A stretch of 64,000 nt of DNA from a virus. Its lineage: Duplodnaviria; Caudoviricetes. The notes beneath the pieces were generated by a model that saw nothing but the letters and a program-made list of their open reading frames with translations, did not search any database and was not told the DNA's origin. The position numbers were made by a program, and so were the translations under genes. The stretch is from IMG/VR virus record IMGVR_UViG_3300006204_000007, positions 14,960 through 78,959 of that record. One strand, 5' to 3'. Below, piece after piece: positions 6,405-64,000 of this stretch. Every line of letters starts with the position of its first letter. The stretch's first letter is position 1.

Positions 6405-6413
6405 AACACCCTC

Positions 6414-10790: not shown

Positions 10791-10823
10791 AATATTATTA
10801 TCTCCTGTAAAAAAAGAAAACCC

Positions 10824-11093: not shown

Positions 11094-11221
11094 CTTCCAG
11101 CCTTATGGCTGCCTTTCGTTTTTTATTTTCTTTTTCGGGTTATTGTCATTTGGTTTCCCTCTTGACAATTATATAATATCACATTATTATAACTTTGTAA
11201 AGAGATATTTTCAAAATAATT

Positions 11222-11455: not shown

Positions 11456-11613
11456 TTCAAATCCTCCTTTCTATTTTCTACTATATATTATCATGCCGAA
11501 AAAGTCAACAAAAAATATTTCTTAAAAAAGTTATAAAAAGGCTTGACTATTTCTTTTAAAAGTGATATAGTATAACCACAGCAATCAACAAACCAAACAG
11601 GAGGAAATACAAA

Positions 11614-11997
11614 ATGTTTAAAGGTTCTGAAAAACAGATTAAATGGGCAAATGATATTGTTGATAATACGAGAAAGGCTTTTGAAAATAAGGTCAGGGAA
11701 GCGGAGTCTGACAGTTATACAAATCCAAAGGTTCTTAAAAATTATAAAAACTTATACGAAATAGCAGAAAACATTCTTTCTAATCTTTCTTTGGCATGGT
11801 CTGCTGGTGATGTTATAGAAAATAGAAACGGATTGGAGAGCGGAGATTTAGAAATACTGGGAATAAAAGTTTTTGGTGGCTGCGCAAGAATTAAGGTTGA
11901 CGGAAGATCTTATAAAGATTCTGATCTTAAAAACAGCGAAACGAAAAAAGAAATAGAAAACAGAGCGATTGATTATCTTAAAAATAAAAAGTCATAA
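11614..11997 (+). CDS. Hypothetical moron protein (GSEKQIKWA motif)
   Basis: GGAGG RBS; TTGACT-17-TATAGT promoter at ~11543-11571; divergent from the HTH gene. Confidence 0.75.
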   Translation: MFKGSEKQIKWANDIVDNTRKAFENKVREAESDSYTNPKVLKNYKNLYEIAENILSNLSLAWSAGDVIENRNGLESGDLEILGIKVFGGCARIKVDGRSYKDSDLKNSETKKEIENRAIDYLKNKKS

Positions 11998-48371: not shown

Positions 48372-49151
48372 ATGGATGTATACGAAGTTTTATCGGATAT
48401 AATGGCTTATGAAGGACTTTCAATAGCACAAGTGGCAAAGAAATGTGGTCTTCCAGATTCTACGGTTAGAGGCATTACAACCAGAAAACAAAAAACTGTC
48501 TCACTTGATGTTGCATATAAACTTTCTGATGGATTAGGTGTTTCACTCGAACGATTGAACGGGATGAAAGACCCCAATGAAAATAAAGAAAGAAGTTATT
48601 ATGAAACTCATGCCACGGATAAGGAATTTGAGGACATTATAAGAAAATATCGTATTATATCCGAATATTCCCCGGACGGAGCAGTCGTGGTTGATACGGT
48701 ACTGGATAGGGAGTATGCTATTGCGGAGAAGTTGAGGGAGCAGAAAGAGCAGTTGGAAAAGGTTCAGAGGATGAATATAGAAGTATCGGAAGAACTTATA
48801 CCATTAAGGCTGTGGGCTTATTACGGGAAAATCGCTTGCGCCGGAACTGGATTTATATTTGATGATATTCCATCAGATACCGTTCAAGCCCCGGACGCAA
48901 ACGCAGACTTTATAATAGGTGTAAACGGTGATTCTATGGAGCCTGACTATTCTGACGGAGAAAAACTGTATATTAAAAAGGTAGAGCGTATAAATCCGGG
49001 CGAAGTCGGCATATTCACTATCAATAATGAATGTTTCTTGAAAGAATATGGAAAAGACGGGCTTGTTTCCAGAAATAAAAAGTATGACGATATTCCGGGA
49101 AACGAAGATGTACGTCTAATTGGGAAAGTAGTTGGAAAAGTTGAGGAATAA
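48372..49151 (+). CDS. cI: CI-like repressor (HTH plus S24 peptidase)
   Basis: N-terminal HTH; CAG cleavage motif, VNGDSMEP, FLKEY. Confidence 0.9.
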   Translation: MDVYEVLSDIMAYEGLSIAQVAKKCGLPDSTVRGITTRKQKTVSLDVAYKLSDGLGVSLERLNGMKDPNENKERSYYETHATDKEFEDIIRKYRIISEYSPDGAVVVDTVLDREYAIAEKLREQKEQLEKVQRMNIEVSEELIPLRLWAYYGKIACAGTGFIFDDIPSDTVQAPDANADFIIGVNGDSMEPDYSDGEKLYIKKVERINPGEVGIFTINNECFLKEYGKDGLVSRNKKYDDIPGNEDVRLIGKVVGKVEE

Positions 49152-49475: not shown

Positions 49476-49631
49476 AAGAAAAAACCGCCCGGCGCTACCA
49501 ACACCGAACGGCTTACATAGATACCAGAAGATGATACCTACAACCCAAAAATATTGTATCATCTTCGGGGGCGGCTTGCAAGCGGATTTCCCGCAGGCTG
49601 TTATTTTTTTACAAAAAAGGAGGATGATACC

Positions 49632-50666
49632 ATGGCAACAGCAAAAAAACTACCGTCCGGCAACTGGCGCTGCCAAGTCTACGATTACACGGACGGAGCT
49701 GGGAAACGGCATTACAAGTCCTTTACGGCCGCCACGAAAAGGGGAGCGGAGCATCTGGCCGCAGAATACGCCGACACAAAAAAGGAGCGGCCGCAGCCGC
49801 TTAAGGTGACAGTGGGCAAGGCGCTGGATAATTATATCAATATCAAAAGCAATGTATTATCCCCCAGCACGGTAAGGGGGTACCGCGCGATGAGAAGCAG
49901 CAACTATTCCGATATCGAAGATATCCTGCTGGAAGACCTCACGCAGGAAGTGGTGCAGATATGGGCAAACTCCTTGGCTGCAAAGAAAAATGCCAAAACG
50001 GTTAAAAACGCCCATGGGCTGCTGTCGGCCATGCTCTCCGTGTATATGCCAGATTTCATGCTCCGTACCGCCCTTCCGAAAAAGCAGAAGGAAGTGCCGT
50101 ACATACCAACAGAAAGCGATATAAGGCTCATAATGGAGTTTTTCAAGGAAAAGGATACAGAAATGCTTAAGGCGGTTTACCTGGCCGCGTTCGGCACGCT
50201 GCGGCGTTCAGAGATATGCGGGTTGACCGGGGAAGATATAGAGGGGAATGTGATCCACGTCCACTCGGCTGTTGTTATGGATGATTCGGCTAACTGGATC
50301 AAAAAAAATACAAAAACATCTTCCAGCGACAGATATATACCTCTTCCAGATTTCGTAATCGATGCGCTGCCAAAAAGCGGCAATGTAGTTCTAATTGAAC
50401 CTTCCAAAATATCTGCACGGTTTTCGTCCGCATTGAAAAGACTTTCCATACCTCATTTCCGCTTCCATGATTTGCGCCATTATTCGGCCAGCATCATGCA
50501 CGCGATCGGCATCCCGGATCAATATATCATGCAGCGGGGCGGTTGGAGTTCGGATGGGGTTTTAAAATCAATTTACCGCAATACCATGGACGATTACGCC
50601 AAAAAATTTAGCAGCCAGATCAACGATTATTTTAAAAATGCAACACAAAATATCACACAAGAATAG
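49632..50666 (+). CDS. int: Tyrosine integrase
   Basis: LRRSEICGL, FHDLRH, RGGW...IYRN catalytic motifs; GGAGG RBS before ATG 49632. Confidence 0.95.
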   Translation: MATAKKLPSGNWRCQVYDYTDGAGKRHYKSFTAATKRGAEHLAAEYADTKKERPQPLKVTVGKALDNYINIKSNVLSPSTVRGYRAMRSSNYSDIEDILLEDLTQEVVQIWANSLAAKKNAKTVKNAHGLLSAMLSVYMPDFMLRTALPKKQKEVPYIPTESDIRLIMEFFKEKDTEMLKAVYLAAFGTLRRSEICGLTGEDIEGNVIHVHSAVVMDDSANWIKKNTKTSSSDRYIPLPDFVIDALPKSGNVVLIEPSKISARFSSALKRLSIPHFRFHDLRHYSASIMHAIGIPDQYIMQRGGWSSDGVLKSIYRNTMDDYAKKFSSQINDYFKNATQNITQE

Positions 50667-50877: not shown

Positions 50878-51663
50878 TTAATTAATCGCCGTCCATGTTT
50901 TTACCCCCACAATCCCATCAACAATAAGACTGTTTTCTGCCTGAAATGCTTTTACTGCTTCTAATGTTTTTTTACCAAAAATTCCGTCAATATTACCAAC
51001 CCCATAACCTTTTGCCGTAAGACGCTGCTGCAGATATGTCACATCATCACCACGGCTTCCTGTTTTAATAGTGCTGCGTTTCGGAGCAGTTCCCTGAAGA
51101 TTCCCATAATATATATTCATGTCTACATTGGATGGTATGCCTGATATCCTGCCTTTTGAAGAATGCTGCCACATAAACGGATTGTATCCGTCTATATTAG
51201 AATTATACCTTGCCAGCCACAAGGGATATTTGCTAAGATCACCAAATTTATTTTCTATATAATCAATATTTGAATAGACCCCAACCTCATAACCTTTGGC
51301 AGACAAATAATCACAAAAAGCTTTTACGCTATCCGTCCGGCCTTCTTTTGTTTGCGGATTGCGCTTATCGGAATCATACTCCCAGTCAGCCCATACCCGC
51401 ATAGTAATAATATCCTTATAACCCTCAATGCATTTTTCGCACATTTTGGCATTAAGGACGGCCTCGTCCTTGTTGGCGGCATAAATAAACCAGTAAATGC
51501 CTATTTTTACTCCAGCCGTATGAGCGCCACAGATATTATTGATAAACTGCTTGTCCATCTGCGACTTTCCATATCCGGCTCGAATAATCGCAAAATCTAT
51601 TGACTGGCTTGCTTTTTTCCAGTCAATTTTTCCATTATGGTACGATACATCAATCCCTTTCAT
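50878..51663 (-). CDS. Endolysin: GH25 muramidase plus peptidoglycan-binding domain
   Basis: GIDVSYHNG; WQHSSKG...VDMN; GSRGDDVTYLQQRL...DGIFG..T. Confidence 0.93.
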   Translation of the reverse strand: MKGIDVSYHNGKIDWKKASQSIDFAIIRAGYGKSQMDKQFINNICGAHTAGVKIGIYWFIYAANKDEAVLNAKMCEKCIEGYKDIITMRVWADWEYDSDKRNPQTKEGRTDSVKAFCDYLSAKGYEVGVYSNIDYIENKFGDLSKYPLWLARYNSNIDGYNPFMWQHSSKGRISGIPSNVDMNIYYGNLQGTAPKRSTIKTGSRGDDVTYLQQRLTAKGYGVGNIDGIFGKKTLEAVKAFQAENSLIVDGIVGVKTWTAIN

Positions 51664-51673
51664 CTGGCTGCCT

Positions 51674-51913
51674 CTACTTTCTTAAGTCTTTTAAATGCTC
51701 GTCAGCTATAATGGCCGCCTGTGTAAAACTATTGTTTTTCCACCACGCACACAGTGACGCTCCTACAGTCAAAGCCATGGACACGGCCTGCCCGAAATCC
51801 TCGTCCGCAAACGGGAGAGGGCTATAGCCGCTGATTGTCAGCACTTGGTTGATAAGTGCAAAAACTAATACCGCAGTTCTCACGATGGTTCCTGTTTCAA
51901 TTTTCTTTTTCAT
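51674..51913 (-). CDS. Holin, SPP1 family
   Basis: GTIVRTAVL..ALINQ.L...AWWKNNSFTQAA. Confidence 0.9.
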   Translation of the reverse strand: MKKKIETGTIVRTAVLVFALINQVLTISGYSPLPFADEDFGQAVSMALTVGASLCAWWKNNSFTQAAIIADEHLKDLRK

Positions 51914-52188
51914 GGTTTTATACCTTCTTTCTTTTCTAAATTATCAATACGGTGGTTAGCCGTTCTGATTCGTTCCTCCATCACATCAGCCCGTGCCTCC
52001 AGCCTGTCCACGCGCCCGTCCATGACAGAGCAGTTTTCACACTGCTTTTTCAATTTTTCCTCAAGCTGTGTTACACGGTATGTAAGCACCTTTGCGCTAC
52101 CAACGACACCTACAACGGAACCTATCAGACTTGCAACAGCCGGTATGATGATGTTAAGTAATTCGTTTGACATATAAACACCTCTCAA
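51910..52188 (-). CDS. Lysis-module protein (TM helix plus coiled coil)
   Basis: IIIPAVASLIGSVVGVV...YRVTQLEEK; upstream of the holin. Confidence 0.75.
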   Translation of the reverse strand: MRGVYMSNELLNIIIPAVASLIGSVVGVVGSAKVLTYRVTQLEEKLKKQCENCSVMDGRVDRLEARADVMEERIRTANHRIDNLEKKEGIKP

Positions 52189-52203
52189 ACATTTCTTAAG
52201 TAT

Positions 52204-52236
52204 ATGATACCTTACGAAAGACTGGACATTGTACCA
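52204..52236 (-). promoter_or_regulatory. TGGTACAA-N19-TATCAT promoter upstream of the lysis genes
   Basis: Box 52229..52236, -10 at 52204..52209. Confidence 0.8.
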
Positions 52237-52337
52237 TTTTTATCGATCCAATCCTTAGTCATTTTTTTCCACAGCTTTGGAACGTCCCCTATATGCATAT
52301 CGCCGTTCAAAATCTTCAAACCATAAAATTTTCCCAT
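52212..52337 (-). CDS. XkdX/CD1375-like small protein (41 aa)
   Basis: MGKFYGLKILNGDMHIGDVPKLWKK...; absent from the ORF track. Confidence 0.65.
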   Translation of the reverse strand: MGKFYGLKILNGDMHIGDVPKLWKKMTKDWIDKNGTMSSLS

Positions 52338-52407
52338 TAAGCAAGCCCTCTTTCTTCAGCGAATTCGTTAATTGTTTTAAAACCTTCCTTTTGCTGTTAA
52401 TAGATAT

Positions 52408-52767
52408 TTAATTATTCAGCTGTAATGCAAATAGTCTGTTATTGCCAGATGCGTTTATGGCATAAGGTTTATCACTCCTGTTTTGCGCGGTAATCACTAA
52501 CGCGTTTTGCGAGGAAAGACGTACAACATCCACGCCGTTTTGCCCTAATAAGATGGATACATAGTTGCCTGTCGTACTAAGATTGATATGGTATACAGTA
52601 TCAAGGTTATAGTTTGACATCCGATATCCGATTAGGTATAGCCCTGGCTGTAAAATTACTGTCCGGCATAATTATGTTCCAGTTGTCATGTTTGCTGGCA
52701 GAGTAATTGCATTAGTAACACTGCTAATTATTAACCTACTGTTTATGATTCCTAAATTGCTGTTTAT
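52408..52767 (-). pseudogene. Silent tail-fibre C-terminal cassette with one in-frame TAA
   Basis: Begins at ATAAACAGCAATTTA (INSNL); single frame ...MTTGT*LCRTVILQPGLYLIGYRMSNYN...QLNN*. Confidence 0.7.
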
Positions 52768-52976
52768 CTCTTATTATAGAATGCTTTTATCCGTATCCCC
52801 ATCCCTTCATATGGCTCACCTCCTTCCAAATACTTGTTAACGCCAAATAAGCCTGCTGTCTGGCAGGCTGTTTCATGGTTCCTATTCGCAAGCACACAGT
52901 ACAGAACGCCTTTCAGTTCATCCATCCTTTTCCCTGCCATTCCAAGCAGTACTTTGCCGATAATCTGTTCTACCAT
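52764..52976 (-). pseudogene. Probable N-terminal remnant of a tyrosine recombinase
   Basis: GGGAGG RBS; MVEQIIGKVLLGM...ELKGVLYCVL resembles recombinase N-termini in related phages (recalled); no catalytic domain follows. Confidence 0.45.
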
Positions 52977-53033
52977 AACTGCCTCCCGTTTTTGCTCCCA
53001 TTATATCAAACAGGCAGATGGGGCGTTGGTGAG

Positions 53034-53357
53034 ATAAACAGCAATTTAGCGCCTGAAGTATTAACAAACGGTATTGATTTTGAAAAATATTACCGCATCG
53101 ACATAGTAATAAGAGAAGAAAGAATATCATCCGCGATTTATACAGCAAGCTTTTTAGAACCATCAAAACGTCGTTCGCAATTTTTTAGCTATATAACGCA
53201 CAATCTAAACTATATGTATGCTGGTATAGCTAAAATCGAATTTATGAATGAGGGAAGTATATCCGCTACCCATAGGATGGGAATTAACCTAAATACTGGT
53301 GATCCAGCTACCAACAACTATACTATCCTTGGTATAATGGGATATAAGCATATTTAA
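53034..53357 (+). other. Inverted, startless tail-fibre C-terminal cassette
   Basis: Open frame from ATAAACAGCAATTTA (INSNLAPEV...GYKHI*), convergent with 53371..54483. Confidence 0.8.
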
Positions 53358-53370
53358 GATATCTGCTTTT

Positions 53371-54483
53371 CTATTTATAAATAATATAGCTGAAGGATGT
53401 GTCTATTCTGGCCGGATCAGTGTTTGCAGGGAAATAAATTTCCAAAGTGCCAGTACCCGATGAATTAGCATATATTCTGGCCGAATAGCATTTCCCATTT
53501 GTGCATTGCAATGATAAATAGTTTGTAAATAATGGTTTTGGTACACCAGTTAAAACAATATCTCCGTTTTTTACATTACTGCTGGGAGAAGTTTCAAAAC
53601 TAATGTAACAAATTCTTCCAATTAAATAATAGTCTGCTCCTTTGGTAAATTTTTCTCCTTTTACTGCGGATTTCTTTGTTATTTTAGTTTCGTTTGTTAA
53701 ATCGCTGTTTATTTGATCAAGCCGACTTTGCAAACTGCTTTGCTCTTCTTTCAAAACCCTTCCTGCATCTGCATCCAGCGCTACTATTCCCGGTGTATCC
53801 ACAAGAAAATTATTTGCAAGTTCTGCAAATGCATGTGGTTTTAAATCCTCGCAGAATTTTGATAGCTTTGCAAAAGCAATTTCTAGGTTGTCACCTGACT
53901 GGACGTTTGCGCGTTCCGTTGCTTGCTCAAATGTAATGATTGCTTTAGAAGCATCCCCGTCCTTTCCTAACTTTTTATTTAATTCTTCCGTTATCACTTT
54001 ATTCTGCACTGGATTTGTCGATGTTGTGCTTAGTTCCGAATCGATATCAAATCCTGCAATGGAAGCTGCCCGGTCGGCCTCATCTTTTGCCCTGTCTGCT
54101 TCGCTTTTCGACTGCTCGCTCCAATATTTGCTGTTATTTGTATCTTCTCCTTCGCGGGTGTTTGTACCGCCTACAGCCCATGATTTGGATGCAACAGACC
54201 ATTCTTCCGCTTGTGTTGCATGTTGCTGTGCCAATTCTTCAAATCGCTCTACCGCAGTCTGGATATTTTGGCAAGTCGCAAGGATGGTCTGTATTTCAAT
54301 CATATCCTGCTCAAACGCTTCATATGTAGCCATTCTTCTGACAATCCCCGGCGCAAAGCACATCCAGACCTTTTTAGAATCCATGGACACCGCCCATTCG
54401 CTGGCGGTCATCTGGTCTGGGTCAAAGTTTTCTTCTGCTCCTCGCCGCATCTGCATCGTTGCTTTGATTGTCTGTATTGCCAT
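53371..54483 (-). CDS. Tail fibre with Mtd-N-like anchor and exchangeable C-terminus
   Basis: N-terminus paralogous to 2879..3415; ATAAACAGCGATTTA (INSDL) at 53698..53712 precedes a beta-rich C-terminal domain. Confidence 0.8.
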   Translation of the reverse strand: MAIQTIKATMQMRRGAEENFDPDQMTASEWAVSMDSKKVWMCFAPGIVRRMATYEAFEQDMIEIQTILATCQNIQTAVERFEELAQQHATQAEEWSVASKSWAVGGTNTREGEDTNNSKYWSEQSKSEADRAKDEADRAASIAGFDIDSELSTTSTNPVQNKVITEELNKKLGKDGDASKAIITFEQATERANVQSGDNLEIAFAKLSKFCEDLKPHAFAELANNFLVDTPGIVALDADAGRVLKEEQSSLQSRLDQINSDLTNETKITKKSAVKGEKFTKGADYYLIGRICYISFETSPSSNVKNGDIVLTGVPKPLFTNYLSLQCTNGKCYSARIYANSSGTGTLEIYFPANTDPARIDTSFSYIIYK

Positions 54484-54683
54484 TATTCTTCACCATCCAC
54501 GATATCCTGCGCAAAATCTTCCAGCTCCGCAACGCAATCCAAAGCAGCGCGGTTCACTACCACTTTGTTTGTGCGTTCATTTTCTTTTACGATGTTTCCG
54601 TTTCCATCAATTTCAGAAAACGTAATAGATAGACGTTTTCCTTCTGCTGTAGTCAATATTGTCATACTGGTTACTTTTCTCAT
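54483..54683 (-). CDS. Small conserved tail-region protein
   Basis: Paralog of 3419..3613. Confidence 0.75.
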   Translation of the reverse strand: MRKVTSMTILTTAEGKRLSITFSEIDGNGNIVKENERTNKVVVNRAALDCVAELEDFAQDIVDGEE

Positions 54684-57304
54684 ATTTTTAATGCCTCCTT
54701 GTAAAAACTTTCTATGTAATTTTGTGCTTCTTTCTCATAATTGATAAATTCTTCTGGTTCTTCCTGCACAAAATTTTCCATTCTTTCTGTTTCAAATCCC
54801 AACTGCCTTGCTTTTATTTCCCATCCAAATTTAAGGAAAGGAGTTCCTTTAACAAGGAAGTAATTCGGTTTCCTTTCCTCCACACACACATCCCCTTGCC
54901 CGTATTTTTGCAGGAATACCTGATACTGGCAGGATGTATTTATGGTTTCATAAAATATGTCATCTATGGATATGTAACATATTCCATTTTCATCTAGTGT
55001 AGCTTCCCCGATATCCCCAAAATATGGCTTGGTGGTTTCATAGCAGTATAATAGGCGGTCGGAATAATTTTGAGTTTTTGCAAGGCGTGATTTACTTCCG
55101 TCTGCCAATAAATATCCATCCACAGATAAATTTTTAAGTTTGCAAAGCTGCGTAGTTCCATTATCTGAAAGAAACATTTGAGAGCCGATGCCTATTCTGC
55201 ATCCATAATTACCTCCTCCAAACATTTTTATATCATTTCCTATGTTTAAATTTGTTTCACCATTTGCCAAATATTTTGCAATATATATTCCTCCAAATTT
55301 TATATGTGCAGTTTCCTCATCTTTAAAACTAATTTTGTTTTCTCCTACAAAATTTATAGTATTATATTTTTCGCCGTTTCCTCCTTCAAACGCAAGAATT
55401 TCCAAAAGTTTTTGTTCGTTTTTTGTTACATAAATTCCCGAAATTCCTATTTTAATTTCTGAACTTCCATATATGTACACAGTTCCATTGAATTTGGAAT
55501 CAACAGCTCCTATATTAACGTATTCTTTTGAATCACTATTAATTTTTAATCCAGTGGCAGAAATAGCTGTGAATGAATCACCAGTGGTATATCCACATCT
55601 AATAGATAACGCTGACATACCAGTTTGCCACCCTCCACTTCTTAAAATTATTCTGGAATCTTTTTCGTTGCTTGTATGAATGTTGACGATTCCCCCGGTA
55701 ATATTCGCAGAATTAGTGGTAATTCCATCTTTATCAAATCTTCCTATCTCATTTCCTTTTGCATCATAAATCACACACGAGCCATCAATATTGTTATCGC
55801 CGCCAAGGGTAAGAGTGCCGCCTTTTATCCAGTCGGCTACAATGCCAATCGCATAAAGGATATTTACTACTGCATTTCCGTTTTTATCGAATCCGGCCGT
55901 ATAGGTTTTCCCCCCGTCAGTTGATATAAAAAACCCGTCAATGGTCTGTTTGTAAATTGTTTTTGATCCTGCTAAACTTGGCTTATCATGGAGATAAGTT
56001 ATAACACTTCCGTCCGGCTGTTTTTCTACCGTTGTATGGTATCCAAGGGCGTTTCCGGCAATCTGCGTCATATTCTGCACGGCCTTGTCATAAGTGGAAA
56101 GCTGTTTTTCTGTGTTTCTCCGCGCTTCCACAACTGCGGCCGCCGCTTCAGAATAATACATGCTGCCGTTCCTGACCGGGTCTTCCGCTTCGCAGGATAC
56201 TTGCGTATAAGAACCGACTGTATAGGAAACGGAATTTATTATCGAAACATACACATTCCCTTTCCAATCCGACACCCTTACTACTTCAAAAGGTTCGTAA
56301 AGAGGATTATTTAATATCTGCGCGGAAAAAGGCCGGAAAACCATGCCAACTATGCGGCCGCCAAGGTAGTTTGCTACTTCCTGCTCTTTTCCTGCTGCAA
56401 AAGGATTTTTTACTTCAATCAAATATCCTTCTTCACCAAATATAGCAAAATTATCGTCTTCGCCAATTACTTTAACTCCCGTAATCTGCACATCATCCGT
56501 ATGCACGTCAAGAGATTTTACACGGAATATATGTTCCGGCATATCTGAAAAATTGCCGCCAGAAATAATGGTGTTTGTGCTGTAATCCGTAAAATTGCCG
56601 CCGTCAAGTATGGTATCATGAGGATATGTCTTAAAATCCCCACCAACATAATTATACTGCTCCAATAATGCGGAGTTGTACCAAATTAACTGCATATATC
56701 CGTCATTGTCTATCCGGGCGTTATATCCGGCTATCTGGCAGGCATAGGAAACAATCTGCCGGTAAGTTCCCGATTCCGGCTTTTCCTTTACGGTAAAAGA
56801 CATATTATCAAACTGCCGGAAGCCTATGGGGATGCCGCAGTCAAGGCAGGCATCCGTGAGAATTGTCTGCAAAGTGGCCGGATATGAGGTTTTGCTGGTG
56901 GAATAGTCCTTATCCAGCAAAAACATTCCATCTACTGCATTGATTTCTATGATTTCCCCTTTTGTAGACGGAATCGTGGCATAATACACTCCTTTGCGGA
57001 TTTTTTCTATGGTTCCATCATCCATGGCCATTGCGACATAAACGCGGATTATGGAGTTATAGAAGTCATATCTGGAGAACCGTTCATCATGGTTTGCAAT
57101 CTTTATGGCCAATGTCTTCCCAACCACAAAACCTACACCAAATTTACCATCTGTGGTCTTGTCTTCTATGCTGCATCCTCCTATCATGAAATCCTTTGGT
57201 TCCAAGTGCAGGACGGTACCGTCTGACAGAGTCACGTCTGCATAATTTACGACCGCCGCGCCGTTTTTCAGTTTTTCCTTAAATTCTTTACTTGCATTTA
57301 TCAT
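54680..57304 (-). CDS. Tail tip/baseplate hub protein
   Basis: Paralog of 3610..6036. Confidence 0.75.
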   Translation of the reverse strand: MINASKEFKEKLKNGAAVVNYADVTLSDGTVLHLEPKDFMIGGCSIEDKTTDGKFGVGFVVGKTLAIKIANHDERFSRYDFYNSIIRVYVAMAMDDGTIEKIRKGVYYATIPSTKGEIIEINAVDGMFLLDKDYSTSKTSYPATLQTILTDACLDCGIPIGFRQFDNMSFTVKEKPESGTYRQIVSYACQIAGYNARIDNDGYMQLIWYNSALLEQYNYVGGDFKTYPHDTILDGGNFTDYSTNTIISGGNFSDMPEHIFRVKSLDVHTDDVQITGVKVIGEDDNFAIFGEEGYLIEVKNPFAAGKEQEVANYLGGRIVGMVFRPFSAQILNNPLYEPFEVVRVSDWKGNVYVSIINSVSYTVGSYTQVSCEAEDPVRNGSMYYSEAAAAVVEARRNTEKQLSTYDKAVQNMTQIAGNALGYHTTVEKQPDGSVITYLHDKPSLAGSKTIYKQTIDGFFISTDGGKTYTAGFDKNGNAVVNILYAIGIVADWIKGGTLTLGGDNNIDGSCVIYDAKGNEIGRFDKDGITTNSANITGGIVNIHTSNEKDSRIILRSGGWQTGMSALSIRCGYTTGDSFTAISATGLKINSDSKEYVNIGAVDSKFNGTVYIYGSSEIKIGISGIYVTKNEQKLLEILAFEGGNGEKYNTINFVGENKISFKDEETAHIKFGGIYIAKYLANGETNLNIGNDIKMFGGGNYGCRIGIGSQMFLSDNGTTQLCKLKNLSVDGYLLADGSKSRLAKTQNYSDRLLYCYETTKPYFGDIGEATLDENGICYISIDDIFYETINTSCQYQVFLQKYGQGDVCVEERKPNYFLVKGTPFLKFGWEIKARQLGFETERMENFVQEEPEEFINYEKEAQNYIESFYKEALKI

Positions 57305-57672
57305 ACTGGATTTATCCCCACTGCATTAAATGATAATGATTCCCAAACAAAATGGCTGTTTGATACCCTTAAAGTTCCCAAGCTGTAATTTGATGTGTAA
57401 AACTGGCCCGTTTTCCAACCGCCTGTTACCGGGCTTAAATACCGCATGGTGTAGCCGCTCCTGTTTAGTATTTGGCCGATGATTTTAGCCACTTCCTCCG
57501 GCTCTATGTACCTCCATTCAAACGCATAGCTTTCTATCGTTCCCATGGGCGTGTTGTGCATTACCAAGTCTTGCGTCCTGTCCGAATCTTCCGTTGATGT
57601 CGTTGCCATGGATGGACGGAAGGCATCTGGCGTTTTGACTTTTATTCCATTAAATTCAAATGGCCTGTTCAT
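57301..57672 (-). CDS. Distal tail (Dit-like) protein
   Basis: Paralog of 6033..6404. Confidence 0.7.
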   Translation of the reverse strand: MNRPFEFNGIKVKTPDAFRPSMATTSTEDSDRTQDLVMHNTPMGTIESYAFEWRYIEPEEVAKIIGQILNRSGYTMRYLSPVTGGWKTGQFYTSNYSLGTLRVSNSHFVWESLSFNAVGINPV

Positions 57673-57684
57673 GATACCTCCCTC

Positions 57685-60600
57685 CTATGTTGTTCCAAGC
57701 GCAAACATATTGTTTCCTGTTGCCATCTGCTGAATTTTTCCTTCTTTTACCACTGACTCTGCAACTTGTTTTCCGTCAAGATATTGCTTTATAATGATTG
57801 TTTGCGGATTGCTATTGATCCTGTTTCCAGTTATTCCAAGTTCCGACAGCACTTCCAAAATAGATTCCCTGTTAGCTTTTTTTATTGTATCAAGCGGAGC
57901 CTCGACATTTGTACCATGTTTCTGATCGCCCAGTACGGCCAAAAATTCTTTGTTTGCCGGTATTACCGCTCCTGTGGCCAGCTTTGGTATTGGAGTGGTT
58001 CTTAGCGAATCAAACGCCGGACTTTGATACATTGACAAAGAAGCTGGTGTGAAAGAATAACTTCTCCCGTAAGAATAAGAGCTTGTGCTTCTGGATGAAA
58101 TTACCCGCGAGGTAAGGCTTCTTAAAGAATTGCCAAGCGATCCGATTGTGCTGGAAATCCATCCAAATACGGAACTTATTGTATTTTTTACCGAATCCAG
58201 CACGGAGCCGACCTTGCCCTGCATTCCTTCCCATGCCCGCGACCATATATTTTGCGCACTGGATGAAAAATTGCTGATCGCGCTTTGCATCCCGGAAAAT
58301 TTATCCCGGACGCTCCCGGCCATGGACTGCGCGGAGGATACTGCCTTTTCCTTTATATTGCCCCATGCGGATGCTGTTGTTTCCTTGGCTTTCGCCCATG
58401 CATTCGCAATATTGGTTTTTACATTTTCTGCCGACTCTTTTACGTTGGATTTAATATTTGTCCATGATTCCTTTATTCCATTTTTCACATTATCAAACGT
58501 GGCCTTTGCGCCGGATTTTATATTGTTCCATTTTTCGGAAAGGTTCTGTTTGATGCCATCCCAAACTTGCGATGCCGTCTGCTTAATGGAATTCCAGGTA
58601 TTTCCAAGAAAATCCTTCACCCCATTCCAAATATTGACCGCAGTTTCTTTCATCCCTTCCCATATGGCTTTTACATCGCCTACAAGGCTCAATATGCCGT
58701 TCAACAGGCCTTGGATGATGTATTTTCCCATTTCGGCCATGACGGTGGACGGGGAGTGGATGCCGAAAAGGGATTTGAATGCATCCATAAAAGGTTTGAA
58801 TATATGGTCATGTATCCAATCTCCGATTCCGACTATAGCATCCACAATTCCCTGCATAAGTCCAAAGATTATATCTTTACCAATTTCCCATATTCCAGAT
58901 ACTATAGTTCTAATTCCTTCTACAAATCCTTCAACAACAGTTTGCAATCCCTTAAAAGCTAATTCCCAATCTCCAGAAAAGACTCCTGTTAAAAAATCAA
59001 TAATTCCTCCTATAACCGTTATAATAGAATTTATAGCATCTGAAACATATCCTACAAATTTTACTAATTCATCCCATACAGCCTTTATAACTGGAAGGAT
59101 TTTAGGAAGAACATTATCTATAATCCACGCAATAAAAGGTTGCAATATGTTTTCCCATAAAGCTTTCAACAAATCTGCAACTTTACCCAAAAGTTCAATA
59201 AAATTATCAACCATTGGCTGTATATGGGTTTTCCACAATTTGTCAAAATCTTTTGCCATTTGTTTAAGAATTGGTTGTACTTTTCCATTCCAAAAATCTA
59301 AAAATCTTTTAACTAAATCAGATAACCCATCAGCAATCGAATCAAAAAACGGTTTAAAATGTTCATCATACACTTCATTCAGTTTGTCAAACGTATCATC
59401 CACCGCATCCTTTATAGTTCCGGCCACATCTGCCAGGACTCCAAGAAACCCTTCTAAAGCTGTGCGGAACCCTTCCTTGTTTTCCACAAATGGCTGTATA
59501 AATATATTGAGAACATCCCTTATAAGTTTTGATGCAAGCTCCGTCACTCCCATAAATGCATCCGTAAATATGCCAATAAGGTTTGCGGTAAGCCGCTGGC
59601 CATCTTCGCTTGCAAATGCTTCAAATACATATGCAAAGGACTGGAATAAGTCTGATAACAGGTAGTTTACTTCTTCCCATATGTCAAACATAGAAACAAG
59701 ATGATCTTTTATCCTTTCCTTATTTTCTTCCAGGTATTTTGCAATGCCGCCTACAATGTTAGTAGCAATCGTCAGCCCTATGCTTGCCGTAGCACCGACA
59801 AGGCTGCCCAACATATACGCGACAGATTTCACGAAACTGTCTGCGGCAGAAATAACTTCCGGGTTCGTAAAAATATCCTTAAGACTTTCCTTTATGGATG
59901 CTATGCTGTCCTTTATGGAGTCCCACCGATACTCCCAATCGCCCAGCCCGTCAAAAAAGCCCTGTTTGAAAATCCCGGCCAACTCTTTCAATTTCCCTAT
60001 TAAACCGTCGGCCGATTCGCTTACTTTATCTAGGACATTTTCACCCTCTGCGACCTTACCATAATCTATATTTTCAATTTCACTGATATTTCCAATGTCT
60101 ATCCCTGCTTCCGGTTGCTCTAAATCAGCAAGTTCTTCATTTTTACTGAATTTGTTTATTTCATCAAGAGGGCTTAAATATCCTTCTGCGGCTTTTTCCG
60201 CATCTTTGGTTGCATCGGCCACTTTTTCTGTAGATATTGCCAAATTATCTGCCGCGTCTGCCGCATCATTATATCCGTCAATGGAGTCACCTAAACCGCC
60301 TCCAGCCATTCCGGCTTTTGCCGCCACTCCGCTTCCTGCAGAAGCTTTTTTGCCTGTTATTAACTCCGTAAAAGATTTAAAGGCATTGGCAACCGTTGCA
60401 AGTTTTTCAAGCAATATATTGATAACCTTTATAGCAGGCGTAAAGATATTGATAAGTCCCTGTCCTATGGTTGCCATTAAGCTTTCAATCTGCAATTTTA
60501 AAATTCTTGTCTGGTTTGCCCAACTGTCTGATGTACGGATAAAATCCCCGGATGCTCCGGCAAGCTGGTCTATCACAAATTGATACCTTAAGGCGACTTT

Positions 60601-61188
60601 TTCCTGCTCCGTCATTTTGCTTGTAGTTTTCCCGAAACCATTGGCAAGAGCGTACTGGTCAAGAGCAGCTTGCGTCATGACAACGCCAAGTTCTTTCAAT
60701 GTCTCTGTTTCTCCCGTAAATACGGATTTCAGCTTTATGTATGCTTCGTCTTGCGAGATGTTATAAAAAGATGCAACATCCCCTGATAATTGCGTCAGAG
60801 CAGTAGACATCTTATAGGCTTCATCCTCCGCAAAACCAAAAGATTTTGACATGGCACCAAACGTACCGACATACCTTTTTGCCATGGTTTCCGATAAACC
60901 GGCAGATACGGCAGCGTTTTTTGCAAATTCATTCACTTTTTCTGACATGGTGGTAAATGTCACGTCCACAACATTCTGCACTTCTTCCAAATCAGAGCCT
61001 AATTCTATGGCTTCTTTTCCGAACTGAATAAGTTTTTTTACAGCAAAAACAGAAGCAAGTAGAGCGGCAGTACTTCTTGCAGCTTCGCTAATACGGCTTA
61101 AAGACCCCCTTACCGCTGATTCTCCACGCCTGATTCCATTTGTATCAATTTCTGTATTTATCCTTATGCTTCCGTCATACTGCGCCAT
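57685..61188 (-). CDS. Tape measure protein
   Basis: 1167 aa with 11-residue Trp repeats; N-terminus shared with 6414..9641. Confidence 0.92.
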   Translation of the reverse strand: MAQYDGSIRINTEIDTNGIRRGESAVRGSLSRISEAARSTAALLASVFAVKKLIQFGKEAIELGSDLEEVQNVVDVTFTTMSEKVNEFAKNAAVSAGLSETMAKRYVGTFGAMSKSFGFAEDEAYKMSTALTQLSGDVASFYNISQDEAYIKLKSVFTGETETLKELGVVMTQAALDQYALANGFGKTTSKMTEQEKVALRYQFVIDQLAGASGDFIRTSDSWANQTRILKLQIESLMATIGQGLINIFTPAIKVINILLEKLATVANAFKSFTELITGKKASAGSGVAAKAGMAGGGLGDSIDGYNDAADAADNLAISTEKVADATKDAEKAAEGYLSPLDEINKFSKNEELADLEQPEAGIDIGNISEIENIDYGKVAEGENVLDKVSESADGLIGKLKELAGIFKQGFFDGLGDWEYRWDSIKDSIASIKESLKDIFTNPEVISAADSFVKSVAYMLGSLVGATASIGLTIATNIVGGIAKYLEENKERIKDHLVSMFDIWEEVNYLLSDLFQSFAYVFEAFASEDGQRLTANLIGIFTDAFMGVTELASKLIRDVLNIFIQPFVENKEGFRTALEGFLGVLADVAGTIKDAVDDTFDKLNEVYDEHFKPFFDSIADGLSDLVKRFLDFWNGKVQPILKQMAKDFDKLWKTHIQPMVDNFIELLGKVADLLKALWENILQPFIAWIIDNVLPKILPVIKAVWDELVKFVGYVSDAINSIITVIGGIIDFLTGVFSGDWELAFKGLQTVVEGFVEGIRTIVSGIWEIGKDIIFGLMQGIVDAIVGIGDWIHDHIFKPFMDAFKSLFGIHSPSTVMAEMGKYIIQGLLNGILSLVGDVKAIWEGMKETAVNIWNGVKDFLGNTWNSIKQTASQVWDGIKQNLSEKWNNIKSGAKATFDNVKNGIKESWTNIKSNVKESAENVKTNIANAWAKAKETTASAWGNIKEKAVSSAQSMAGSVRDKFSGMQSAISNFSSSAQNIWSRAWEGMQGKVGSVLDSVKNTISSVFGWISSTIGSLGNSLRSLTSRVISSRSTSSYSYGRSYSFTPASLSMYQSPAFDSLRTTPIPKLATGAVIPANKEFLAVLGDQKHGTNVEAPLDTIKKANRESILEVLSELGITGNRINSNPQTIIIKQYLDGKQVAESVVKEGKIQQMATGNNMFALGTT

Positions 61189-61205
61189 AAAATCACCCGT
61201 AAAAT

Positions 61206-61246
61206 AAAAAAGTGCCAGAATAACGTCAACACGTACTTACCGGCAC
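61206..61246 (-). promoter_or_regulatory. GTGCCGG...CTGGCAC hairpin plus U-tract in the tape measure leader
   Basis: Stem seen directly; equivalent to 9629..9669. Confidence 0.6.
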
Positions 61247-61294
61247 CGTTTAGCCGTTATCTACAACCGTTTATGCAGATCTCATATTTAATTT

Positions 61295-61327
61295 ATTTTA
61301 GCATGGTTTTTGAGTGGATTTGTACCA
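61295..61327 (-). promoter_or_regulatory. TGGTACAA-N19-TAAAAT promoter upstream of tape measure gene
   Basis: Box 61320..61327, -10 at 61295..61300 with extended TG. Confidence 0.8.
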
Positions 61328-61346
61328 AATTAAAAGAGCAGTATTT

Positions 61347-61529
61347 CTACTGCCCTTTATCCATAATTTTATATTTTAAGTCTATCCCTTGTCGGATAAG
61401 TTCTGATTTTGAGATTCCTTCTTTTTCACATATAGCCTTTACCTTTTTTTCTGTTTCCTCGTCTACTCGTATTTGATAGAGTATATCTTTGGGTGTATCG
61501 GTTAGTTTAGTACCTTTTTTTATTCCCAT
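61347..61529 (-). CDS. Ribbon-helix-helix (CopG-like) protein
   Basis: QIRVDEETEKKVKAICEKEGISKSELIRQGI. Confidence 0.8.
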   Translation of the reverse strand: MGIKKGTKLTDTPKDILYQIRVDEETEKKVKAICEKEGISKSELIRQGIDLKYKIMDKGQ

Positions 61530-61532
61530 ATT

Positions 61533-61784
61533 TTAGACCTCGTACCATTCGCCATAAAAACCAAAATCTCCAAACTGACAGGTCACAACATCATCTTTCT
61601 CGGGAGCAACGCCGTACCAAGGTAAATTCGCAATAACTTCTCCGTCCTCGCCCTCAATCCTAACAGACTGTTGCGTGTATGTAAGACCTTCTTCTGCAAC
61701 TCTCATAGCATCTTCTAAAGTTCCCTCGATTTCCTCGTTTCCTGCTCCCGTTCCGTAATTTACATAATATTTCATATTTTCCAC
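61533..61784 (-). CDS. Small acidic moron protein
   Basis: Acidic 83 aa with own promoter region at 61820-61860. Confidence 0.7.
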   Translation of the reverse strand: MENMKYYVNYGTGAGNEEIEGTLEDAMRVAEEGLTYTQQSVRIEGEDGEVIANLPWYGVAPEKDDVVTCQFGDFGFYGEWYEV

Positions 61785-61895
61785 CTTTAAGCCTTTTGGC
61801 TTTCCTCTCTGTTTTGTTTGTAATTACATTATAACAGAAAGTTTTTTCTTTGTCAATACAAAGTTAAATTTTTAAAAAATAAAGGAACGATATTT

Positions 61896-62033
61896 CTACC
61901 GCTCCTTATCTGACTTTACAATTTTAAGTTTTTCTTCCAAAATCACAATTCCGTCTTTATTCTTTTTGACTTTTGCAGTGTTGCCCTGCCCCGCAATCTC
62001 CCGGGCAGTCTTTCCAATCTCTTTATCCGTCAT
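61896..62033 (-). CDS. Small conserved protein after tail chaperone (45 aa)
   Basis: Paralog of 13045..13197. Confidence 0.7.
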   Translation of the reverse strand: MTDKEIGKTAREIAGQGNTAKVKKNKDGIVILEEKLKIVKSDKER

Positions 62034-62623
62034 CCTAACACCTCGTCCAACAATGCTTTATATTCGTCCTCCTGTTCCTGTTCTTCTTTGGTCTTTGGCT
62101 TTTTCATCAGCACCAGTTCTTTGTTATGAGAGAGGAACTCTTTCTCATGCTTTTCCAGCTTCTTACCCTTATTCAGCTTATTTCTAATCCCTACAATAAA
62201 GGAGAATGTACCTTCTCCCACTTCGTTAAAATATCCAAGAAACGTCCACCAGTGCAGGTAATCCAGTTCTCTCGTTTCTCTCCCGGCAACCTTATTGACC
62301 GCAGAAAAAATCATTTGTTCGTCTTGCGTCCAGCTATATGTTGGCTGTTCAAGCACCTGTTTTTCCGGCTGCCCGGCAGAAATGAACCATGATATTTGTT
62401 TCATTGCTTCTTCCAAGTCAAAGCCATTCTGCCCCGCCTGCAGCACATCATCATCACAGGAAAAATTATCAAACAGCAGATAGATTGCCACAATCCATTT
62501 TTCCTCTTGGGTCAGCTCTGGGTCTTGAAACGCTTCAAAGACTTGAAGGACATTGCGGTAGTCGGTTCGGATAGGGTAATCCACGCCGCTAACCGTCAAC
62601 ACCTCCGGCAATGCGCCTATCAT
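62030..62623 (-). CDS. Tail assembly chaperone (Gp15-like)
   Basis: Near-identical to 13194..13787. Confidence 0.85.
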   Translation of the reverse strand: MIGALPEVLTVSGVDYPIRTDYRNVLQVFEAFQDPELTQEEKWIVAIYLLFDNFSCDDDVLQAGQNGFDLEEAMKQISWFISAGQPEKQVLEQPTYSWTQDEQMIFSAVNKVAGRETRELDYLHWWTFLGYFNEVGEGTFSFIVGIRNKLNKGKKLEKHEKEFLSHNKELVLMKKPKTKEEQEQEDEYKALLDEVLG

Positions 62624-63132
62624 TTTGCTCCTTTCCTTTTATGGTCCTGCGGCTGATACTTAGCCATGCGCTGCTTGCTTGCCAGTTTATTCAGCTTGAC
62701 CTTGTGTTCAGACAACCTTTCAATGACCGGAATAAGAGAATCCCAGAAATCCATAAAGCACTCTAAATCCGGCTGGAAGTTCGGAATCACCGCATACACA
62801 TCACCAAAGAATTTCCGAGTTGTTCCCTCGCCGAAAACGTCGTCCATGATAGCAGTTGCCTTTTCAGAAAAATACTTTCGTTCCTCGATTTCCTTTTTAT
62901 AGTCCATCTCGCCGGAATCAGACTCTTTCTTCTCCATTTCCTCTGCTAATGCAATCAATTCATCGCCAGCCGCCCGGAACCTGTCAAAGATAGAAATGTC
63001 ATTGCCGGAAATCACGATAAAATCATCACCGCCGCCGACATAGACCTTTGTAAGCGTCACCCGGTTGTCAATCCTGATCTCTTCTGTTTTTGTATTTTCA
63101 TTTTCAATTTTCATTTCTTCAATTTCTGTCAT
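62620..63132 (-). CDS. Tail assembly chaperone
   Basis: Near-identical to 13784..14296. Confidence 0.75.
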   Translation of the reverse strand: MTEIEEMKIENENTKTEEIRIDNRVTLTKVYVGGGDDFIVISGNDISIFDRFRAAGDELIALAEEMEKKESDSGEMDYKKEIEERKYFSEKATAIMDDVFGEGTTRKFFGDVYAVIPNFQPDLECFMDFWDSLIPVIERLSEHKVKLNKLASKQRMAKYQPQDHKRKGAK

Positions 63133-63185
63133 ATTATTGTCCTTTCAAAAACGGGGCATATCCAAAACGAATACACCCCATTATT

Positions 63186-63773
63186 TTAACTAAGATTGCT
63201 CTTGCTGCTTGATTTGGTCTGCGCTGGTTCGCTTAATGCTGCCGGGGATGTTACGCTCTCCGGTGTAAATGTTGGCACTTTGTTAGACACAGATACCGTT
63301 CCCTGTGTTCTTCCGCCGTCCTCCGAAATCGTGAATGGGATTGCGTACCCGGAAGTACCACCTCCATCACTATCAAATACAACCTTGACAGGAACGCTGA
63401 ACCCTTTCCCCGTCAGCGTCTTTGTTGTGGAATCTTTAACCTCGTCTGTCAGGGTTGCGACAATCAGCGTGGCAGATGTGCGTTCATCATCAGTAGCAAG
63501 CGTGTCAACAATCGTCTGCAAGAAGGGATAAATCGCGTCCTCTCTCCTTGCTATGTAACCGTCATTACTAAGCGTAGGCGTATAGCCATTGTTCACGAAC
63601 GTGACTTCGCCCTGTACGTTTTTTACCTGCTCGCTGTCATTGTTTCCCTCAATGCTCAAATCATCACTGTCTTTACCAAGGCATGTGTAACCTTCATTAT
63701 CAAACGTCAGCCACATCGCCCGGCATCCCCTTAAAATCTTTCCCGTTTTCGGGGTTGCTGGTGTTTCAGGCAT
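63186..63773 (-). CDS. Major tail (tube) protein
   Basis: Diverged paralog of 14352..14912 with the same C-terminal tail. Confidence 0.8.
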   Translation of the reverse strand: MPETPATPKTGKILRGCRAMWLTFDNEGYTCLGKDSDDLSIEGNNDSEQVKNVQGEVTFVNNGYTPTLSNDGYIARREDAIYPFLQTIVDTLATDDERTSATLIVATLTDEVKDSTTKTLTGKGFSVPVKVVFDSDGGGTSGYAIPFTISEDGGRTQGTVSVSNKVPTFTPESVTSPAALSEPAQTKSSSKSNLS

Positions 63774-63787
63774 AATATTTCTCCTTT

Positions 63788-64000
63788 CTACTCTACTTCA
63801 TATTCCATCACCGCATCGGCGGCATAGACAGTGCTTTTATCCTGCCCTGTTTCATCCTTGTAAGGAATTGCCCCGGATGCCGTAATCTTCGTTATCGTCC
63901 TGCCGTTAGTCAGCAGGGGTAAATCTTTTGTGTTTTCAAGCCACCGCATGACACGCCCCACAAACGCCTGCGAATTGATACGCTGTGGCGAGGTCTGCGG
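63788..64000 (-). CDS. Tail terminator protein, partial (5' end outside the window)
   Basis: 3' end matches 14927..15376 (STVYAADAVMEYEVE). Confidence 0.75.
   Translation of the reverse strand, partial: PQTSPQRINSQAFVGRVMRWLENTKDLPLLTNGRTITKITASGAIPYKDETGQDKSTVYAADAVMEYEVE

Follow-up and report, generated by a model that had tools for sequence, protein, structure and literature searches.

We conclude that the tail-fibre locus analyzed here very probably represents the decayed remains of a tail-fibre tip shufflon, probably locked, of a kind found widely among prophages of Lachnospiraceae and related Clostridia. The locus lies in a 64,000-nt stretch of a viral contig (the window), and the phage to which it belongs is a prophage of a gut Lachnospiraceae-type bacterium. 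An initial annotation, made from the letters of the window, had read the region as a decaying host-range switch that had lost its recombinase, and this reading is supported by the intact design of related loci, by a deletion of ~940 bp and by a nonsense codon in one of the silent cassettes, tip3. The coordinates of the remaining parts are collected in Table 1.

Table 1. Features of the fibre-tip locus, in window coordinates
Feature	Position	Strand	Basis or remark
Conserved 41-aa gene, downstream border of the shufflon in relatives	52212..52337	-	resembles L022 translation
Place occupied in relatives by the fourth cassette, site D and a 130-136-aa gene	52338..52407	.	70 bp left
Tip3, silent cassette with nonsense codon	52408..52751	-	homology to fibre C-terminus
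Site C, 19 bp	52752..52770	-	identical to B; orientation same as A
Former 3' flank of recombinase gene	52771..52856	-	now read through by 70-codon ORF
Deletion junction, ~33 bp	52857..52889	.	L026 has ~940 bp there, recombinase codons ~32-329
Recombinase remnant, codons 1-29	52890..52976	-	protein match
Former 5' untranslated/promoter region of recombinase gene	52977..53030	-	divergent from site B
Site B, 19 bp, GAGATAAACAGCAATTTAG	53031..53049	+	inverted relative to A
Tip2, silent startless cassette	53049..53357	+	107 codons open from site
Tip1, currently expressed, predicted head domain	53371..53697	-	homology and fold model
Tail-fibre / receptor-binding gene, 370 aa, P0001	53371..54483	-	ORF and translation
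Site A, ATAAACAGCGATTTA	53698..53712	-	inside expressed fibre gene

The repeated site on which the whole arrangement depends could be located precisely. The 15-mer ATAAACAGCRATTTA matches exactly at 52753-52767(-), 53034-53048(+) and 53698-53712(-), the three places in which a 15-bp site had originally been reported, and no further copy of the site exists in the whole 78,959-bp contig. The core TAAACAGC(A/G)ATTTA is present three times and shuffled sequences yield none; for the 14-bp core TAAACAGCRATTTA, three matches were found against 0.00 expected from 100 dinucleotide-preserving shuffles. The two silent copies, B and C, form a perfect inverted repeat (19/19) with a spacing of 260 nt; the 19 bp that they share had been noted initially. 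Site A departs from both at one position of the 14-bp core, where it has G instead of A, and in the sequence 5' of that core; its pairing in an inverted-repeat search extends over 23 nt at 83%. The canonical core TAAACAGCAATTTA, read I/L-N-S-N-L, sits within 16-19 conserved bp; the core of the window sites is identical to that of the relatives L026, L027 and L102-L109, and an 18-mer identical to site B occurs in fibre genes and cassettes of L022, L026 and L027.

All three sites are read in the frame I-N-S-(N/D)-L, and the site stands both at the shaft/head junction of the fibre and at the head of each silent cassette. The fibre gene reads ...DQINSDLTNE... at site A, cassette 2 reads ..EINSNLAPEV.. 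at site B and stays open up to a stop codon at 53355-53357, and cassette 3 reads ..EINSNLGIINS.. at site C with a single internal stop. Since cassette 2 is open in frame at its site, an inversion between A and B would fuse tip2 to the shaft in frame, and the proposal that such an inversion would swap the fibre C-terminus agrees with the frames of both partners.

P0001, the product of the expressed gene, comprises a constant shaft (residues 1-257), the junction INSDL and tip1; upstream of its gene lie that of an 874-aa tail protein (phrog_6616) and then a 66-aa gene. Among 551 homologues of P0001, many have the N-terminal ~260 aa in common and diverge immediately after the INSNL/INSDL junction. 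Tip1 is 42-57% identical to the C-termini of the fibres P0004, P0010, P0042 and P0043, and its AlphaFold model (pLDDT 91) is a beta-sandwich whose best PDB matches are the receptor-binding protein heads of the lactococcal phages p2/TP901-1 (TM 0.58-0.65); tip1 thus models as a receptor-binding-protein head. Tip2 stands tail-to-tail with it, 13 bp separating their stop codons. Over its first ~60 residues tip2 shares 55% identity with P0251, in which the tip is joined to a shaft, and with P0250, in which it is silent, and over its last ~45 residues it shares 68% with P0252; these relatives were seen only by exhaustive HMMER search, and none was found in viral contigs or longer proteins. Tip3 aligns over 118 aa with the C-terminus of fibre P0018 at 76% identity, and in the intact shufflon L085 its homologue is the third cassette. 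It carries the single TAA that had been noticed in it, at 52672-52674(-), where two relatives conserve GAA (Glu). The identification of the cassettes as fibre tips, that is, receptor-binding heads, is therefore supported, for tip1 by homology and fold and for tip3 and tip2 by sequence, in tip2 through the shaft-joined P0251, and the resemblance to fibre tip domains on which the initial annotation had built stands. Folding the tips, which it had put forward as a check, gave a clear answer for tip1; the model of tip2 is of low confidence (pLDDT 50).

When the window is compared with its intact relatives, both alternative tips and a recombinase are found at the same locus (L026 and L085), as a decayed switch would lead one to look for. 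The full design runs fibre, site A, tip1 / tip2, site B / Xer-like tyrosine recombinase / site C, tip3 / tip4, site D. In L085, four sites (+,-,+,-) surround the recombinase and are followed by the 41-aa gene, holin and lysin, and L026 is laid out as fibre-site-tip / tip-site / 329-aa recombinase / site-tip with the same 18-mer as the window. The gene order of the window is like that of these two (fibre / tip pair / recombinase / tip pair / 41-aa gene / lysis genes), and the core is the same or differs by one base; the window, however, is without ~300 recombinase codons, the fourth cassette and site D, and has the nonsense codon in tip3 and the drifted site A. The intact 329-aa tyrosine recombinase P0127 carries the domains PF00589 and PF13495. 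Its best NCBIfam match is the Xer-type model NF040815 (238 bits, cut-off 220), it scores far under the cut-offs of two 'tyrosine-type DNA invertase' models, and its closest structures are XerC-like, XerA and XerD. No GenBank phage matched window 52200-54700 by blastn.

Other relatives record the shuffling itself. An 810-bp segment is 100% identical between L102 and L106-L109, with its flanks exchanged exactly at the core, and this is direct evidence of site-specific shuffling. One tip occurs both shaft-joined (P0251) and silent (P0250), and in many Lachnospiraceae/Clostridia prophages invertible tip pairs are bordered by this core. Most recombinase homologues sit on contigs of 1.15-1.3 kb, which is the distance between sites B and C and fits assembly breaks at both. 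Distant homologues (42-52% identity) were detected in 29 of the 301 sampled Lachnospiraceae species genomes; in the four inspected genomes with short flanking repeats the four-site geometry is kept and the site sequences are their own, such that site sequences co-vary with recombinase lineage and the geometry is unchanged. Two recombinase types, P0127-like and P0254-like (34% identical), accompany the same 14-bp core. None of five site-bearing species genomes has a P0127 match at E <= 1e-40, and one of them carries the P0254 type instead. L088, with a 407-nt inverted copy of tip1, resembles a further isomer of L085 but may equally be an assembly artefact, and it is left out of the evidence.

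In the window, an intact recombinase is absent between the inner inverted site pair; 29 codons and both flanks are left. Residues 1-29 of P0003, the product of the 70-codon ORF, are 66% identical to residues 3-31 of P0127 (E = 1e-11), and the position and orientation of this remnant match those of the recombinase gene of L026 (L026:4832-5821). By blastn, window 52890-53048 aligns with L026 5729-5891 (74% identity) and window 52753-52856 with L026 4685-4788 (69% identity), and the gap between these two blocks marks the deletion. The alignments support loss of the recombinase through an internal deletion of ~940 bp. Of the 70-codon ORF at 52764-52976(-), described initially as having a recombinase-like start, it is indeed the start that derives from the recombinase (the 29 codons); the remainder is read-through into the old 3' flank.

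The remnant is the sole tblastn match to either recombinase type on the contig, and no other copy of either type was found by tblastn in the 79-kb contig or in ~34 kb of the phage's late region from another sample. A search of the whole contig for serine invertases gave no PF00239 match, and control genomes did match. Two tyrosine integrases on the contig (window 49554-50666; G000 10723-11739) were rejected as belonging to neighbouring prophages. Neither is matched by either shufflon recombinase (tblastn, E <= 1e-3), and the one scanned with NF040815 scored 38.8 bits against the cut-off of 220.

The downstream end of the locus is reduced as well. In L085, tip4, site D and a 136-aa gene precede a gene that is equal in size to the 41-aa gene and takes its position. 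The 70 bp that follow tip3 in the window resemble the terminal part of L022's 130-aa gene too weakly to be relied on, and no fourth site is present in the window at up to 2 mismatches. L101, a variant of the same phage lineage, keeps tip4 and site D after tip3, adjoined by a second recombinase that is frameshifted. With the fourth cassette and site D gone and site C oriented as A, tip3 can be reached only by deletion, in line with the earlier view that deletion or conversion would be the only routes to the third cassette.

Taken together with the relatives, these remnants suggest how the device may have worked. In its intact form an Xer-like ('armless') tyrosine recombinase is encoded between two tail-to-tail pairs of startless tips; it would catalyze recombination between inverted sites, which flips the intervening DNA so that a different receptor-binding head is attached in frame to the constant shaft, and through such a change of heads would alter host range. 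Given four sites, successive inversions could reach all four heads. In the window's phage, decay has involved deletion of ~940 bp of the recombinase gene, loss of the fourth cassette together with its site, a nonsense codon in tip3 and drift of site A off the canonical core, and a phage with these four lesions would make the tip1 fibre only.

The assemblies are consistent with a locked state. Seven contigs, drawn from seven samples, run collinearly through the aligned parts of 52150-54600 at 99.9-100% identity (five of the seven span it all), and the TAA of tip3 is present in each of the six that cover tip3. Samples that contain the phage include ERR2497912, ERR2497917, ERR2497919, ERR2497921 and JGI 3300006143-3300006151. 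The window's phage is found in one orientation only in these assemblies, which give the majority orientation; its seven contigs include no isomers, whereas relatives do show them, and its assemblies are contiguous and uniform, whereas in relatives whose recombinase is intact the assemblies are mostly interrupted at the sites. A search of 5.8 billion protein clusters returned no long protein that contains tip2, and hence no shaft-tip2 fusion, and the best fibre homologue there was 54% identical. We infer from this that the window's phage probably does not flip even at low frequency. Two points count against locking: minority flipped molecules are compatible with majority-orientation assemblies, and the relative L113 is apparently intact despite one site with a mismatch, which bears on the G in site A.

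The alternative that survives best is that the locus is an orphan shufflon still flipped in trans by a recombinase of a co-resident prophage or of the host, with tip2 fibres made at low frequency. We regard this as unlikely. It draws on the canonical sequence of sites B and C, identical to sites of relatives with intact recombinases, and on the sharing of one 14-bp core by P0127-like and P0254-like enzymes. The cultured Lachnospiraceae bacterium 28-4 has one locus with a P0254-type recombinase (96% identical) and a recombinase-less three-site locus, both with the same core and a common 60-bp module of back-to-back sites; trans action is therefore plausible in principle. L027 likewise has an inverted site pair with no P0127-type recombinase in 28 kb, and inversion served in trans has been proposed for a Bifidobacterium prophage (PMC6109161). 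Because the host genome and the phage early region lie off the contig, a trans-acting recombinase may exist, and the 19/19 identity of sites B and C fits recent loss but would fit continued use too. Against trans flipping stand the single orientation in seven independent contigs, the missing shaft-tip2 protein and the unlike cores of sites A and B. No such recombinase is encoded on the 79-kb contig, the whole neighbouring prophage included, the second recombinase of L101 is itself frameshifted, and tip3 would yield a truncated fibre regardless. The more specific idea that co-resident prophage recombinases flip the fibre tip of the window's phage through the common core we hold to be quite improbable. 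A third possibility, that there never was a programmed switch and the cassettes are leftovers of ordinary homologous recombination among fibre genes sharing the INSNL junction motif, could appeal to the divergence of fibre homologues at INSNL/INSDL, a conserved junction in the protein, and to L022, whose fibre gene contains the canonical 18-mer but which lacks cassettes and a recombinase, but it is very improbable and appears already contradicted by the comparative data, in that the homology of both silent copies stops at exactly the same 19 bp, these copies flank the recombinase remnant in the geometry of intact relatives, the flanks of relatives are swapped exactly at the core, and sites co-vary with recombinase lineage with their geometry kept.

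A decayed, probably locked shufflon can be placed among several known systems. In the shufflon of plasmid R64, the tyrosine recombinase Rci acts at several 19-bp sfx sites to shuffle the C-terminal tips of the adhesin pilV. That system serves a plasmid pilus gene, whereas the window concerns a phage fibre, and the best NCBIfam models for P0127 are Xer-type. Inversion at intragenic sites that swaps the tail-fibre C-terminus in frame is known from Gin (Mu), Cin (P1) and Min (p15B), the last with several sites and cassettes (PMC6109161). These use serine invertases, whereas the enzyme of the window's family is a tyrosine recombinase and the contig has no PF00239 match.

The closest parallel is the Rin shufflon of Bifidobacterium breve/longum prophages (Mavrich et al. 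2018, PMC6109161), a type also reported in Eggerthella lenta prophages (PMC8778435). Rin has a phage-encoded tyrosine recombinase without an arm-binding domain, to which the Xer-like enzyme of the Lachnospiraceae family, kept in the window as the 29-codon remnant, may correspond, and like the window it has a constant receptor-binding N-terminus and startless C-terminal cassettes behind short in-frame repeated sites (PMC6109161). The Rin cassettes resemble TP901-1-type receptor-binding heads (PMC6109161), the same structural match that tip1 gives. The Rin site, however, is the 11-bp rix TTCCCTAACCC (PMC6109161), whereas the core in the window has 14 bp, and the Rin cassettes are described as standing in tandem between the constant gene and rin (PMC6109161), unlike the Lachnospiraceae form, in which the recombinase lies between two convergent cassette pairs and is flanked by inverted sites. 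The hosts differ also, Actinobacteria for Rin and Lachnospiraceae for the window's family; Bifidobacterium phage records do not occur among the tblastn matches to the recombinase that were listed (25 of 28). The window's copy, unlike Rin, is without a recombinase.

The principle is thus a known one, tyrosine-recombinase shufflons of phage receptor-binding proteins having been described since 2018, and nothing new in principle is added here. For annotation the locus carries a warning: the 70-codon ORF, a 121-aa ORF over tip2 and a 70-aa ORF in tip3 are not genes, and the recombinases of the family are routinely labelled integrase or XerC/D. As a decayed shufflon, the locus documents the death of a phage host-range switch, with the enzyme deleted, a cassette pair lost, tip3 interrupted by a nonsense codon and the expressed site drifted; the silent sites B and C remain perfect through the decay. 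It can serve as a naturally 'locked' control alongside the many intact members of this shufflon family in gut Lachnospiraceae prophages, and as a test bed for the trans action of such recombinases and for the strictness of the identical-core requirement. Were flipping in trans to prove true, a prophage would determine which hosts its co-resident can infect.

The locus belongs, in decayed form, to a family of tail-fibre shufflons in Lachnospiraceae prophages, and the initial annotation, which took it for a decaying switch, had correctly read a real feature. The 15-mer ATAAACAGCRATTTA occurs as exactly three exact copies in the window, at the positions and on the strands first given for them (sites A, B and C); its 14-bp core (three copies vs none in 100 shuffles) has no further copy elsewhere on the whole contig. 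The 19 bp said to be common to the two silent copies form a perfect inverted repeat of B and C, 260 nt apart, and site A differs from both at one position inside the core, plus bases 5' of it. The frame I-N-S-(N/D)-L is read at all three sites, as claimed. The inverted cassette that follows B (tip2) stays open over 107 codons; the cassette behind C (tip3) carries the single TAA described, and the same position is GAA in the protein P0018 and in the cassette of L085, an intact relative.

Coordinates of features in the window, the whole contig (G000) and related loci
Feature	Position	Strand	Remark
DDE transposase, 467 aa (PF01609)	24346-25749	+	inside neighbouring prophage
Neighbouring prophage repressor	48372-49151		at its end
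Neighbouring prophage integrase	49554-50666		at its end
Subject prophage endolysin	starts 50878		its first gene in window
Site C	52752-52770	-	19 bp
Alignment block	52753-52856		L026 site B and recombinase 3' flank
70-codon ORF	52764-52976	-	contains recombinase remnant
Alignment block	52890-53048		first ~30 recombinase codons, upstream region and next site of L026
Site B	53031-53049	+	19 bp
Fibre gene	53371-54483
Site A	53698-53712	-	in fibre gene
Third integrase	G000 10723-11739		left of window
L085 sites	5251, 5925, 7114, 7894	+, -, +, -
L085 recombinase	5995-6984
L022 18-mer	6765-6780		in fibre gene
L023 site copy	7235-7250		contig stops here
L027 18-mers	798-815, 1359-1376	+, -	identical

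Intact relatives carry alternative tips plus a recombinase at this locus. In L026, found by an 18-mer scan of viral contigs, a fibre gene with a site is accompanied by a convergent inverted cassette with a site, and a 329-aa tyrosine recombinase (P0127; PF00589 and PF13495). A further site-cassette unit, the third, diverges from the start of the recombinase gene. L085 is the complete form, with a recombinase 83% identical to P0127 and, downstream, a 136-aa gene, a 41-aa gene, holin and lysin. P0127 exceeds the cut-off of a Xer-type NCBIfam model, and its nearest solved structures are XerC-like, XerA and XerD. Its family numbers 2823 proteins at E <= 1e-30 (nearly all of the 120 listed are 326-331 aa). 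Of 301 Lachnospiraceae species genomes sampled, 29 encode homologues at E <= 1e-80; four of five Lachnospiraceae loci inspected share the four-site geometry with lineage-specific sites.

In the syntenic L022, whose fibre is 54% identical, the fibre gene carries the canonical 18-mer, and neither cassettes nor recombinase were found on its contig; L023, with the same fibre, diverges past the stop codon. The provirus contig L027 holds an inverted two-site, two-tip pair, and no P0127-type recombinase was found in its 28 kb. In a Blautia sp. MAG (JAMPGC010000001.1), a recombinase of the P0127 family and three sites (core TAAATAGCAATTTA) have an ABC-transporter operon on one side and a CRISPR-Cas locus on the other, with no tail genes called nearby; this may be a stranded remnant, or the system may serve a non-phage function. 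Distant homologues of the recombinase (30-34% identity), annotated 'integrase', separate the last tail/fibre gene from the holin in the cultured phages phiCp-D of Clostridium (MW478291.1, 21639-22616) and TPELB_ph1 of Terrisporobacter (PP197244.1, 17645-18640), the latter of which carries a separate integrase.

When the window is aligned to L026, the 260 bp between B and C resolve into two blocks, and about 940 bp of the recombinase gene are replaced by about 33 bp, which bears out its proposed loss. The 70-codon ORF does begin like a recombinase, matching it in residues 1-29, whereas the remainder does not. Only 70 bp separate tip3 from the conserved 41-aa gene, where relatives have a fourth cassette, site D and a 130-136-aa gene. 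Since only A(-), B(+) and C(-) are present, inversions are limited to a flip of the remnant or to the exchange of tip2 with tip1, the expressed fibre head, and for this exchange site orientation and frames would allow the in-frame swap of the fibre C-terminus originally envisaged. Tip3, for which deletion or conversion had been proposed, could be reached only by A-C deletion, and the product would be a truncated fibre. The sister variant L101 (97% identity over 760 bp) has the same remnant and TAA; past tip3 it retains an inverted fourth cassette and site D (GCTAAACAGCAATTTA), as well as a second recombinase gene, whose type differs from P0127 (34% identity). Relative to the intact 339-aa P0254, this second gene is frameshifted by a short deletion. 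The four-site layout was therefore once complete in this lineage, which also had two recombinases, both of them now broken or lost.

Many of the 551 fibre homologues are alike over their first ~260 residues and split just past the INSNL/INSDL junction. Tip1 resembles the C-termini of four of them, and tip3 is 76% identical to the P0018 C-terminus over 118 residues. Tip2 has distant relatives only: over its first ~60 residues it shares 55% identity with a cassette seen both shaft-joined (P0251) and silent (P0250), and over its last ~45 it shares 68% identity with P0252. That the cassettes encode fibre tips gained structural support for tip1, modelled as a beta-sandwich (pLDDT 91) whose best PDB matches are the receptor-binding protein heads of lactococcal phages p2 and TP901-1 (TM about 0.6); the tip2 model was unusable and gave no fold.

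Related loci provide evidence that a site with core TAAACAGCAATTTA acts as the crossover site. L102 and L106-L109 share an 810-bp segment at 100% identity with the core at both edges; the outer flanks differ, switching exactly at TAAACAGCAATTTA, and the right flank in L102 is the left flank in L106. Among the matches listed, most recombinase homologues lie on contigs of 1.15-1.3 kb, equal to the B-to-C distance, and several genome contigs end at the site, a pattern typical of assembly graphs at repeats undergoing active inversion. Within each tabulated relative, the sites agree over a core of at least 13 bp, except for a second site with two mismatches in L083 and L084 and one mismatched site in L113. 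In L102-L109 a frameshift splits the tip2-like cassette into two ORFs (P0251/P0250 and P0252); yet the 810-bp segment is 99.9-100% identical between L102 and L106-L109 and lies in the expressed position.

The exact fibre and remnant proteins recur on 22-23 contigs, and in seven distinct contigs, each from a different sample, the region is collinear with the window at 99.9-100% identity (five span it completely), although these are consensus assemblies, in which minority orientations are hidden. Among 5.8 billion protein clusters no protein joined the shaft to another tip (best match 54% identical), and no long protein in the clusters searched contained tip2. Searches with both recombinase types (tblastn) of the contig and about 34 kb of the late region from another sample returned only the 29-residue remnant; action in trans by a recombinase encoded in the phage's early region or in the host genome is conceivable. 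In Lachnospiraceae bacterium 28-4, isolated from mouse gut and cultured (L118, G005:C1:1462836-1466852; L059, KE159598.1), one locus combines five sites with an intact P0254-type recombinase (96% identity), while another fibre locus, with three sites, lacks a recombinase. Both loci contain the core TAAACAGCAATTTA and the same 60-bp module of back-to-back sites, making them a candidate case of recombination in trans in a tractable strain.

Self-comparison of the 78,959-bp IMG/VR contig (window, bases 14960-78959) revealed two related prophages in tandem, with patches 70-85% identical; the integrase/repressor end of one (window 1-50700) adjoins the lysis end of the next (50878-64000). This junction is also present in contigs of other samples and is thus not an assembly chimera. 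The subject prophage, transcribed leftward, runs from endolysin through holin genes, shufflon locus, fibre gene, 66-aa gene, 874-aa tail protein and tape measure to the contig end, which is the window's right end. The DDE transposase, in a patch of 34-36% GC vs about 43%, is probably an insertion sequence.

Shuffling of receptor-binding-protein tips by an armless tyrosine recombinase that the phage itself encodes was described in Bifidobacterium prophages as the Rin shufflon (PMC6109161), and the same principle recurs in Eggerthella lenta prophages (PMC8778435). The present family differs from Rin in site sequence, in hosts and in having the recombinase embedded between two convergent cassette pairs; our literature search found no paper combining shufflon, Lachnospiraceae and phage. 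The principle of tip shuffling is thus already known from the Rin shufflon, and the locus in the window adds a decayed copy.
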